A stretch of 64,000 nucleotides of DNA from the IMG/VR virus record IMGVR_UViG_3300020044_010179, positions 1-64,000 of that record. One strand, given 5' to 3'. A program made the translations under genes and the position numbers. The DNA is from a virus. Lineage: Duplodnaviria; Caudoviricetes. The notes under the pieces were generated by a model, which worked only from the letters and a program-made list of their open reading frames with translations, ran no database searches and was not told where the DNA came from. Below, one piece after another: positions 16,690 through 26,336 of the stretch. Numbering within the stretch: position 1 is the stretch's first letter; each line of letters opens with the position of its first letter.

Positions 16690-17004
16690 ATGGTAACAGA
16701 AATTAGTGTATTTGATAGTGAGGAATTTGAGGAATTGATTTCACAACGTGATTTGAGAATATCAAAGGCACTTGTAGAAACTATCTTAAAGAACTTAAAA
16801 GGTAGAAAAAGACACCTACACGCCCTTACAGTATTGGTAGAGCAAGATCAAACAATATATGATATAACAGTGGATAGAAATGATTTTATCACCACTTTAG
16901 AACAGAACCTTCCAGTATATGAAAAAAATGAACTGTATGAAGGATGTGCTGAAATAGTTACTGCTGTAAAATTTTTAAAAGGCAAGGATATTAAAAAGAA
17001 ATAA
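16690..17004 (+). CDS. Hypothetical protein with C-terminal UVR-like motif
   Basis: ELYEGCAEI. Confidence 0.5.
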   Translation: MVTEISVFDSEEFEELISQRDLRISKALVETILKNLKGRKRHLHALTVLVEQDQTIYDITVDRNDFITTLEQNLPVYEKNELYEGCAEIVTAVKFLKGKDIKKK

Positions 17005-17058
17005 AAGGGAATTGGATTTACAAAAGAATTTTTGTATATTTCATCTAAAAGAAAGGTT

Positions 17059-17502
17059 ATGTTAAGTGAGTTAACGTTAGAATATGAAGATGGAACAAGG
17101 GTAGTAAAAGTGGTACCAAAAAGTGAATCCACAATTTACCCCCAAAGAGACAATATTAAACATTGCACTCATAGATCTTTCAAATACGAGGTATCAAAAC
17201 ACCCTTATTTATGTGTTGCTATTGTAAAAATGGGAGAGGAATATAGAATTATGCCTGAAGGTATTAATTGTATTCCTGAAACTGAATTAAGTGATGTTTT
17301 GGTAATAGATAATTTACCTAAAGTTGTTGAAAAGCCTAAACAGGAAAATAAATGGATGTTTGAATCCTCAAGTGGAGATGGCTTTTATCAAGTAAGAGAG
17401 AATATGGGTAAATTAAAATGTAGTTGTCCTGGATCGTGGAGAGCATTTGATAAAAGATGTAAACATATTAAAGAAGTAGAAAAAGAGTTAAATATAAAAT
17501 AA
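17059..17502 (+). CDS. SWIM zinc-finger protein
   Basis: CSCPGSWRAFDKRCKH (CxC...CxH). Start taken as ATG 17059, behind a promoter motif. Confidence 0.7.
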   Translation: MLSELTLEYEDGTRVVKVVPKSESTIYPQRDNIKHCTHRSFKYEVSKHPYLCVAIVKMGEEYRIMPEGINCIPETELSDVLVIDNLPKVVEKPKQENKWMFESSSGDGFYQVRENMGKLKCSCPGSWRAFDKRCKHIKEVEKELNIK

Positions 17503-17604
17503 AAATATGAGTAAAAATTCAGCAAAACAAAACACAGAGCAGTTCCAAAGTTGGTTAAGTTGGTTAAACTATATCACTAGAAAACAAGCTAAAAAGTAAA
17601 TTTT

Positions 17605-17676
17605 GGTCCTATCGACTATCGGTTAGGTCGTCAGGTTTTCATCCTGGAAAGCGGGGTTCGATTCCCCGTAGGACTA
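17605..17676 (+). tRNA. tRNA-Glu(UUC)
   Basis: Acceptor GGTCCTA/TAGGACT, anticodon loop TT-TTC-AT and T-arm CGGGG-TTCGATT-CCCCG. Confidence 0.9.
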
Positions 17677-17762
17677 CAACAGCCTGTACCCTTGAGAAAC
17701 TCGTATTTAAAGATAAGCAGGTTGGCTTCGAAATAAAGGGGTATTAGAATAAGAAGCAATAT

Positions 17763-17866
17763 AGTCAGGTGGCGGAATGGTAGACGCTAAAATAATGGGT
17801 AAACAGCGTGCCATTGGGGTAGAACCAAGAAAGTTACGCATACAGGTTCGAATCCTGTCCTGACCA
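17763..17866 (+). ncRNA. tRNA-like element with Leu-type D-arm and an expanded, non-canonical anticodon/variable region
   Basis: AGTCAGG/CCTGACC acceptor, GCGGAATGGTAGACGC D-arm and ACAGG-TTCGAAT-CCTGT T-arm, with no 7-nt anticodon loop. Confidence 0.65.
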
Positions 17867-17940
17867 CAAAAAAACGTTGGTGGAAACACTAAAGAGCATA
17901 ATGATATCAGCTCCAGCAGGTTAAGCGTGCCCTGCAATAT

Positions 17941-18010
17941 AGTCAGATGGCGTGTTGGCATACGCACCCGATCATAAGGGAGATAATGGGTTCGATTCCT
18001 AATCTGACTA
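17941..18010 (+). tRNA. Degenerate tRNA-like element (CAT in loop; Met/Ile-like pseudo-tRNA)
   Basis: AGTCAGA/TCTGACT acceptor, GCGT/ACGC D-stem, only a 3-bp CCC/GGG anticodon stem and a mismatched T-stem. Confidence 0.55.
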
Positions 18011-18069
18011 CGCAAAAAACATTGAACTGAGTTTCCTTGCCGCAAGGTGGGTTTTACAAGTTCAACTAT

Positions 18070-18143
18070 GCGTCTGTAGCTCCAATTGGTAGAGCATCGG
18101 ATTCCAAATCCGAGTGTTAGTGGTTCAAATCCATTCAGGCGTG
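18070..18143 (+). tRNA. tRNA-Trp(CCA)
   Basis: GCGTCTG/CAGGCGT acceptor, GCTC/GAGC D-stem, TCGGA-TTCCAAA-TCCGA anticodon arm and TTCAAAT T-loop. Confidence 0.9.
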
Positions 18144-18183
18144 CAAGTGCAAGAGTTCTTTGACATATAAAAATTTAAAAAAC

Positions 18184-18567
18184 ATGATAGAAATCACATC
18201 ATATGTTTTAGGTATGCTTACGATTACAGCAGTATTATTATTGATTGCTTTAGTTGTAGGTATGGTTAAGATAAGCAAATTAGAAAAAAAAATAAGTGAA
18301 CATCAAAAACAATTCGATATTGTATATGAAAATATGAGCCGCAGTGAAGAATATCTTCGTCGATTGCTTGAAGATACTCATCGCGATATCAATATGGTTG
18401 AAAAAACAATAATGAATCAAGTTCAACAAATTGATCAAGAACATCACAAAATAGAAGATGAAATTCATCGAGAAATTGATCAAACAAAATCCTATATTGA
18501 TTCTCGAATCGATAAGGTAGTATTACAAGGTTCTCTTGTGGGATCAAAAGAATTAATTAAAGGATAA
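18184..18567 (+). CDS. Membrane-anchored coiled-coil protein
   Basis: N-terminal hydrophobic helix followed by heptad-rich sequence. Confidence 0.6.
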   Translation: MIEITSYVLGMLTITAVLLLIALVVGMVKISKLEKKISEHQKQFDIVYENMSRSEEYLRRLLEDTHRDINMVEKTIMNQVQQIDQEHHKIEDEIHREIDQTKSYIDSRIDKVVLQGSLVGSKELIKG

Positions 18568-18597: not shown

Positions 18598-18626
18598 TTG
18601 GCTTTTAAAATTTTTTTTCGTATATT
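18598..18626 (+). promoter_or_regulatory. Sigma70-like promoter TTGGCT-N17-TATATT
   Basis: The same 17-bp spacing recurs at 12168, 17012 and 37667 ahead of gene starts. Confidence 0.65.
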
Positions 18627-18649
18627 CCATTATAAAAAAGGAAAAACCA

Positions 18650-26263: not shown

Positions 26264-26336
26264 AGTCAGGTGTACTTAAATGGAAAAGTACCTAACGCTT
26301 AATTAGGAAATGCAGGTTCGATTCCTGTCCTGACTA
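26264..26336 (+). tRNA. tRNA-Lys(CUU)-like, non-canonical
   Basis: AGTCAGG/CCTGACT acceptor, CCTAA-CGCTTAA-TTAGG arm (G33 instead of U33) and GCAGG-TTCGATT-CCTGT. Confidence 0.65.

Follow-up and report, generated by a model that had tools for sequence, protein, structure and literature searches.

It is well known that phage tRNA islands can contain non-coding RNAs, and that orphan RNAs, including species 1 and 2 of T4, GOLLD and ROOL, lie hidden in them. The T4 species 1 and 2 RNAs (rnaC, rnaD), like the tRNA-like stable RNAs of T5, are stable small RNAs of phage tRNA clusters; we know of no established function for species 1 and 2, GOLLD or ROOL. Trimming of tRNA transcripts by RNase P and RNase Z is established tRNA biology and, in the case of MALAT1, an ENE-type element is coupled to a tRNA-like unit that is cut by RNase P. 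The ENE triple helices of KSHV PAN and MALAT1, together with the triplex pseudoknots of SAM-II and telomerase RNA, provide a comparison for one of the elements described here (motif C). GOLLD and ROOL form homo-oligomers via kissing loops (PMC12286853), and the theta ribozymes, which are HDV-like and come from gut phages, are located within 5 nt of phage tRNA 3' ends (PMC10879173).

Our analyses concern a tRNA island at 17.6-18.15 kb of a 64,000-nt stretch of DNA (the window), part of a 75.7-kb IMG/VR virus record (47% complete) from an uncultured lake phage. The original prediction for this locus was that each gap between its four tRNA-shaped units folds, and that the tRNA-like units may be RNase P/RNase Z processing marks through which small structured RNAs are freed from a single transcript. 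Our results indicate that the three gaps hold three different motifs, A, B and C, and we consider it likely that these are genuine excised structured RNAs of a mosaic phage tRNA island. The island would then comprise two working tRNAs (Glu, Trp), two tRNA-Leu-derived shells and three single-copy small RNA genes.

Layout of the island and its tRNA-derived shells

The island and its surroundings are organized as follows, the slots, i.e. spacers A, B and C, being the gaps between the four tRNA-shaped units:

17059-17502, plus strand, small-protein gene upstream of the tRNA island
17507-17599, plus strand, 30-codon ORF (MSKNSAKQN...) immediately 5' of the tRNA island
17605-17677, plus strand, canonical tRNA-Glu(UUC) (ARAGORN; Rfam tRNA, 54 bits)
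17678-17762, plus strand, spacer A, motif A (covariation; homologues in 21 IMG/VR loci plus L069)
17763-17866, plus strand, tRNA-like unit 2, 104 nt (Rfam tRNA, 33.4 bits; alignment)
17867-17940, plus strand, spacer B, motif B (homologues; P3 covariation; palindromic loops; dimer energy)
17941-18011, plus strand, tRNA-like unit 3, 70 nt (ARAGORN, only in relaxed mode, -ps90)
18012-18069, plus strand, spacer C, motif C (homologues; covariation; covariance model)
18070-18144, plus strand, canonical tRNA-Trp(CCA) (ARAGORN; Rfam tRNA, 58.4 bits)
18184-18567, plus strand, membrane-protein-like ORF downstream of the tRNA island

The plus-strand genes around the island are densely packed and open under table 11 (standard code), and the alternative-code or suppressor-tRNA reading was therefore dropped. 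The DNA of the 30-codon ORF is 73-75% identical to that at the same position in L009, L014, L015 and L016. The phage's own promoter unit (GGAATAAGAG, ~15 nt, TTCGTATATT, 5 nt, GTATAAAT) is repeated at 22-36 kb and occurs before the flanking genes, at ~17000-17050 and 18598-18645; these last two copies bracket the transcription unit that holds the island. A search for this unit found no copy within 17600-18150. The string AGAAUAAG in the loop of motif A resembles the promoter box GGAATAAG; it was rejected as a promoter because the second box is absent after it. The sole terminator-like site in the island is a weak hairpin inside motif C.

With no promoter inside the island and only this weak terminator-like hairpin, the natural route of expression would be co-transcription with subsequent trimming by RNase P and RNase Z, and read-through transcription from the upstream genes would supply the transcript. 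Every tRNA and tRNA-like unit would have its 5' end matured by RNase P and would be cut at the discriminator by RNase Z or an equivalent enzyme; the RNAs in the slots would thereby be set free, each ~55-85 nt long and with precise ends. The 3' end of tRNA-Glu (17677) defines where motif A begins, and an RNase P cut at the 5' end of tRNA-Trp would set the 3' end of motif C. The abutment of the spacers on tRNA ends and the lack of an internal promoter thus support, at the level of sequence, the predicted role of the tRNA and tRNA-like units as RNase P/Z release marks. Genes for a CCA-adding enzyme, RtcB and an RNA ligase were sought in the 75.7-kb record, which is 47% complete, and none was found.

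Unit 2 combines acceptor, D and T arms of the tRNA-Leu type with a 54-nt two-hairpin insert, which replaces the anticodon and variable arms; its Rfam match has 45 nt where the tRNA model has 17, and its 1-72 pair is A.C. Unit 3 has the same acceptor stem as unit 2, a weakened T stem, and an anticodon stem of 3 bp whose odd loop, of 6 or 8 nt, contains CAU. It gave no Rfam tRNA match at E<=10 and, judged by its sequence, is not a credible decoder; its fold z-score is -2.38. Both units retain the 7-bp acceptor stem, the D arm and the T arm with GGTTCGA-type loop of a tRNA, but lack its 5-bp anticodon stem and 7-nt loop (U33, anticodon, purine 37).

Units 2 and 3 are members of a scaffold family of tRNA-Leu-type shells, of which we identified ~65 distinct members on ~50 viral contigs, with up to 6 per contig (in the window at 17763-17866, 17941-18011 and 26264-26336; also in L039, L041, L066 and others). 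The ends of the scaffold are near-invariant, with ~26 nt of AGTCAGGTGGCGGAATGGTAGACGC-like sequence at the 5' end and ~27 nt (ACAGGTTCGAATCCTGTCCTGACTA) at the 3' end, and its middle is hypervariable, ranging from 10 to >100 nt. The inserts are mutually unrelated, which also counters an intron reading of unit 2; this reading was rejected, the tRNA-Thr with a 10-nt 'intron' called by ARAGORN being forced and containing mismatches. All members of the family keep the discriminator A and the LeuRS-type D arm, and the shells might therefore still be charged, or at least processed.

Structure and recurrence of motifs A, B and C

The window alone provides weak evidence for folded spacers. Against dinucleotide shuffles, the plus-strand fold z-scores were -1.13 (A), -1.81 (B) and -1.25 (C), i.e. 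not beyond chance, with -0.26, -0.83 and +0.14, respectively, on the minus strand; the spacer stems contain G.U pairs. The strings quoted in the original prediction are all present where it placed them, and MFE folds reproduced its hairpins in spacers A and B and its outer stem in spacer C; the inner hairpin that it drew in spacer C (CCTTG-CCG-CAAGG) gave way to a different conserved register with a GCAA loop. The 8-mer AGCGTGCC, reported as recurring in loops, does occur at 17805 and 17924, its only positions in the window, but at 17805 it lies in a stem of unit 2, where the L055 homologue reads AGTGTGCC with a compensating ACAC. With a stem in unit 2 and the pseudoknot part of a loop in motif B as its two settings, AGCGTGCC was rejected as a shared functional loop motif, and its sharing is probably a coincidence.

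The proposed search for covariation in homologues found covarying helices in all three motifs, and it is because of this that we regard the spacer structures as real. The weak window z-scores, and the resemblance of the P3 stem of motif B to a T arm with an enlarged loop, could be taken to mean that the hairpins arose by chance or are decaying, functionless remnants of tRNA genes. We regard this reading as extremely improbable, given that dozens of distinct homologues share invariant cores and have stems that covary, in a setting where the neighbouring protein is no more than 45-65% identical.

The homologues were obtained in two ways. The protein encoded upstream of the island recruited 26 related viral loci, many of which have a tRNA island at the same place, and blastn revealed that the spacers, not the tRNAs alone, recur in them; the large families of A, B and C come from pattern scans of IMG/VR. 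No Rfam 15 family lies on A, B or C, whether at gathering thresholds or at E<=10 (cmscan of 17400-18400), the only matches being to tRNA or being tRNA-derived chance matches, and blastn of each spacer against 50,697 records of GenBank phages gave chance matches only. A YrlA/Ro candidate was discarded, there being only a 26-bit chance match in a relative and no TROVE gene in the record. The motif B pattern matched 73 viral-contig stretches, those examined carrying the P3 hairpin. A scan of cellular genomes, which covered B alone, gave 33 matches across 185,579 prokaryote species (one genome each), of which one is genuine, on a phage-like contig with 8 tRNAs; by this sequence criterion, motif B is therefore virus-specific. 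The families A, B and C, together with the DIS-like loop and linked pseudoknot of B, are absent from Rfam 15 and from the literature searched; they may already feature in the set of 8,495 unnamed candidates listed by Fremin et al. 2023 (PMC10690425).

Motif A was found on ~23 uncultured phage contigs (IMG/VR); in the window its elements, all on the plus strand, are:

17680-17686 with 17718-17724, P1
17687-17693 (UACCCUU) with 17737-17743 (AGGGGUA), pseudoknot
17694-17702, hairpin GAG-AAA-CUC
17725-17729 with 17753-17757, P4

The consensus reads NNCCUG, UACCCUU, GAG-AAA-CUC, GUAU, an optional variable hairpin, GAUAAG and CAGGNN in the 5' part, followed by a 3' hairpin with the conserved loop GAWAUAAARGGGUA..AGAAUAA, for which UACCCUU is a potential pairing partner; the window copy is without the variable extra hairpin that its relatives have before GAUAAG. 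An alignment of 11 distinct sequences has 93.9% of its cells paired, with two-sided changes at the outer P1 pairs and at all 5 P4 pairs, and a covariation score of 0.248 versus 0.099 in shuffles (0/500 reach 0.248). The pseudoknot bases are invariant except for one change of U.G to U-A. The excised piece would thus consist of two helices locked by a 7-bp loop pseudoknot. In seven contigs motif A lies 3 nt 3' of a tRNA-Cys and 2 nt 5' of a tRNA-Pro; elsewhere it lies 5' of an initiator-like tRNA, and in another phage group it is free-standing, without tRNAs, before an apparent start codon. The free-standing form indicates that motif A needs no tRNAs and, in that phage group, it could be a cis-regulatory leader.

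Motif B, which ranges from 53 to 88 nt, was found on >80 uncultured phage contigs (IMG/VR); its elements in the window, all on the plus strand, are:

17868-17874, A7 tract
17874-17877 (ACGU) with 17925-17928 (GCGU), pseudoknot
17877-17882 with 17887-17892, P1
17894-17897 with 17910-17913, P2
17902-17909, 8-nt palindrome UGAUAUCA in the P2 loop
17916-17920 with 17931-17935, P3

The consensus runs from a tRNA 3' end through C, A7, UCG(N), an optional P1 hairpin and the P2 hairpin to P3 (GCAGG-UUAAGCGAUAU-CCUGC). P3 is paired in 100% of 64 distinct sequences, with 3/5 of its pairs changed on both sides (GCAGG/CCUGC, GUAGG/CCUAC, ACAGG/CCUGU, GUGGG/CCCAC), and P1 and P2 vary freely in sequence with the hairpin form kept. 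The leader is CAAAAAAAUCG in most copies and CAAAAAAACG in the variant found in the window. Its AUCG(C) is matched by a complementary GCGAU within the loop of P3 and, in the minority form to which the window copy belongs, every ACG(U/C)-leader variant carries the loop GCGU. This linked loss of one whole base pair, in leader and loop together, supports a leader-to-loop pseudoknot.

The P2 loop of motif B contains a self-complementary run of at least 6 nt in 27/45 distinct hairpins, compared with a mean of 3.65 and a maximum of 11 for shuffled loops in 2000 trials, and a run of at least 4 nt in 37/45 (null mean 15.9), counts which take in related sequences and one doubtful P2 assignment (L104). 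The loops hold 14 different palindromes, mostly of the form AA-(6 nt)-A. Maintenance of self-complementarity while the loop sequence varies is the signature of an intermolecular kissing loop, and suggests that motif B forms kissing dimers; in cofolding, the predicted homodimer has an energy of -42.8 versus 2 x -16.1 kcal/mol, i.e. it is 10.6 kcal/mol more stable. The excised piece would have the leader-to-loop pseudoknot and probably pairs with a second B via the P2 loop. P3 (e.g. 17916-17935; GCAGG/ACAGG stem) resembles the scaffold T arm, ACAGG-UUCGAAU-CCUGU, with four additional loop bases, a likeness which raises the possibility that motif B derives from a tRNA whose acceptor stem has been lost.

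Motif C was found on ~75 uncultured phage contigs (IMG/VR); its elements in the window, all on the plus strand, are:

18011-18021, invariant leader CGCAAAAAACA, which starts at the last base of unit 3 as called by ARAGORN (discriminator A at 18010)
18014-18019, A6 tract
18022-18027 with 18060-18065, P1
18028-18034 and 18052-18059, U-rich internal loop
18035-18037 with 18049-18051, plus 18039-18041 with 18046-18048, P2 with GCAA loop

The consensus consists of a tRNA 3' end, the leader, P1 (5-7 bp), NGAGUUU, CCU and a small internal loop in the 5' part, and a variable hairpin, GGG, UUUUANAA and the P1 3' strand in the 3' part. In 52 distinct sequences 91% of cells are paired, and the covariation score of 0.489 compares with 0.261 in shuffles (0/500 reach 0.489) and <=0.150 in slid controls. 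All six P1 pairs change on both sides. The three pairs of lower P2 (C18035-G18051, C18036-G18050 and U18037.G18049, followed by the small internal loop) are 100% paired; the U.G pair becomes C-G or G-C in four sequences, and a C-to-U change at the second C is always linked with a G-to-A change in the GGG run (4 sequences). Upper P2 is formed by C18041-G18046 and, in the window, also by C18040-G18047 and G18039.U18048, with GCAA closing the hairpin. For P2, register A (a continuous helix) was less well supported than register B and was rejected. With the covariance model (R1), each of 58 loci proved to have exactly one copy; two weak matches considered as divergent copies were false, both being within coding sequence.

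Even in a scan anchored only on the upstream tRNA-like end and the leader, no variation was seen in the A6 tract, GAGUUU or UUUUA. GAGUUU and UUUUANAA flank C-G, A6 is invariant in the 52 sequences, and the A6 tract could dock in the U-rich loop, the bases involved all being invariant. In the excised piece, the A6 tract would lie 5' of a hairpin whose U-rich internal loop is invariant; the polarity of the tract would allow it to base-pair with the 3' U run while the 5' U run joins as a third strand. Such an arrangement would have H-type pseudoknot geometry, with a 2-nt linker across the 6-7 bp of P1 and a 4-nt ANAA return, and the 5' end would be hidden by docking. A T-run follows motif C in several phages, where the motif could double as a terminator.

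The closest relative is L069 (reverse strand 445-1245, compared with window 17678-18144). All three spacers match there at 97-100% identity, but other members of the scaffold family take the place of the intervening tRNA-like units, tRNA-Glu is missing, and an extra 96-nt module (motif D) is inserted. The pattern of near-identical spacers with replaced units and an inserted module, together with the HNH endonuclease-like ORF that adjoins the array just upstream, might indicate that the spacers matter mainly as DNA, i.e. as identical junctions for recombination between co-infecting phages, by which tRNA and tRNA-like cassettes would be shuffled. However, compensatory changes preserve the RNA helices as the sequences drift, RNA is also indicated by the G.U pairs and by the better folding of the plus strand, and four unrelated pseudoknotted spacer types exceed the needs of recombination. 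Recombination at conserved sequence is, moreover, an expected side effect and no alternative to RNA function; we thus consider a primarily DNA-level role very unlikely, and prefer the reading of A, B and C as excised RNAs.

Two further observations concern L069. Its island is not adjacent to a homologue of the 17059-17502 gene. Motif D, which has the consensus GUGUUGUUCCCUUGAGAAAGGAA ... ACAACACAGAGG(N)CUUCUC(N)CCUCAA, is a fourth recurrent slot motif, present in L069, L010 (1773-1860), L015 (1950-2150), L056, L066 (6558-6640) and L074 (43-135), and absent from the window.

Slots in tRNA arrays and possible roles of their RNAs

Motifs B and C almost always begin close to the end of one tRNA and frequently stop just short of another. 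For motif C, the 3' end of an upstream tRNA or tRNA-like unit is 0-1 nt away in 31/40 distinct copies, and the 5' end of a downstream tRNA 0-3 nt away in 19/40; for motif B, the upstream tRNA or tRNA-like end is 0-4 nt away in 27/37 copies and the downstream one 0-7 nt in 26/37. The flanking tRNAs vary among phages (Pro/Lys, Ser/Leu, Arg/Gly, Lys/Val, Tyr/Ile and others), and each motif is single-copy per contig, even in arrays of 20-30 tRNAs. The tRNA-tRNA gaps in the viral loci analysed are bimodal, 163/454 being <10 nt and most of the others at least 50 nt, which implies that the arrays have 'slots', each motif filling one slot once; this arrangement favours separate RNA genes over general processing aids. 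Many further slots may hold RNAs that have not been catalogued.

An alternative is that the spacers act purely in cis on the tRNA precursor, in its maturation or protection, and are then discarded; they could be self-cleaving or nuclease-blocking trailers or leaders, including a new ribozyme, theta-ribozyme-like elements or exonuclease-resistant knots; help of this kind for neighbouring tRNAs has been proposed for the theta ribozymes. Motifs B and C start 0-4 nt past the discriminator with invariant leaders (CGCAAAAAACA in C; CAAAAAAAUCG/CAAAAAAACG in B), as expected from the position of HDV-like and theta ribozymes, which provide a precedent (PMC10879173); the very strong conservation of their cores is reminiscent of small ribozymes; and both folds engage the 5' leader in a pseudoknot, the P1/P2 order of motif C giving a crossing topology similar to that of the HDV fold. 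However, no Rfam 15 ribozyme family, HDV included, matches the window, even at E<=10, and HDV-like threading of B and C reveals a partly similar topology without the catalytic features. Motif C lacks a conserved L3 (the would-be L3 is its variable loop), P1.1, the cleavage-site G.U and the catalytic C of J4/2, a position (A-N-A-A) at which any base is found. There is, furthermore, one copy of each motif per array, most tRNAs of which adjoin with gaps of 4-6 nt and evidently need none; the partner tRNAs vary freely; and motif A also exists without tRNAs. On balance we consider a purely cis-acting role unlikely.

If, as we prefer, the spacers are excised RNAs, a trans-acting role in infection may be proposed by analogy with that assumed for other tRNA-island non-coding RNAs, candidate roles being that of a protein or RNA sponge, or of a self-assembling particle as in GOLLD and ROOL. 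It may even be that the products of such islands are mini-RNAs that assemble with themselves, resist nucleases and have a dedicated role in infection, with B as a DIS-like homodimer locked by its leader-to-loop pseudoknot and C as an ENE-like triplex whose U-rich loop clamps the A6 tract, i.e. small relatives of the GOLLD and ROOL cages; we put forward this more specific proposal tentatively, as a possibility that we hold with clearly less confidence than excision itself.

Comparison with known RNAs

Like the T4 species 1 and 2 and T5 RNAs, motifs A, B and C are non-tRNA small RNAs in a tRNA cluster; co-transcription and excision are known for the former, and we infer them here. The spacers have no sequence similarity to rnaC, rnaD or the T5 RNAs (blastn, GenBank phages), and differ from them in comprising three pseudoknotted motifs of 55-85 nt, each common to many uncultured phages.

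GOLLD (RF02032) and ROOL (RF03087) are likewise phage non-coding RNAs typical of tRNA islands, and neither has an Rfam match in the window. Related arrays do hold them, along with Rfam freshwater-1, tmRNA and a group I intron: ROOL (L093, 6757-7393) and GOLLD (L124, 10958-11331) each share an array with motif A or B. The presence of freshwater-1, ROOL and GOLLD in islands with the scaffold family or with motif A or B ties the small motifs to the large island RNAs. The palindromic P2 loop of motif B suggests self-assembly by kissing loops, as with GOLLD and ROOL. However, those RNAs are 570-800+ nt in length and form 8- to 14-mer cages, whereas motif B is far smaller and has one self-complementary loop, such that at most a dimer is expected.

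Freshwater-1 (RF02979) is similarly a small orphan motif of lake metagenomes, and is located in the homologous island of L015 (1435-1496, 74.5 bits); its sequence and fold are different from those of A, B and C, and it is absent from the window.

With respect to dimerization, the HIV-1 DIS is a close parallel: both it and motif B have a loop of ~9 nt with a 6-nt self-complementary run flanked by adenines (purine-flanked in motif B), and in both the palindrome differs between lineages and stays self-complementary. The DIS is of unrelated origin and context, and dimerization of motif B is predicted. With respect to triplex formation, motif C resembles the ENE in having a U-rich internal loop on both strands, G-C closure, and a nearby invariant A6 tract of suitable polarity for putative U.A-U triples; it differs in that its A tract lies 5' of the hairpin, with a 2-nt joint and H-type pseudoknot geometry, and in its shorter loops (3 and 4 U).

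The three motifs are short, well delimited and strongly supported, and thus easy to synthesise and test, providing a tractable handle on the roles of island RNAs. They also make testable predictions, i.e. a dimerizing loop with specificity that varies between phages, a linked pair deletion that marks a pseudoknot, and the pairing of an A tract with a U-rich loop. If excision occurs as we infer, these islands are a natural use of tRNA-processing sites to free other RNAs with exact ends, the same trick as that employed in engineered tRNA-guide-RNA arrays.
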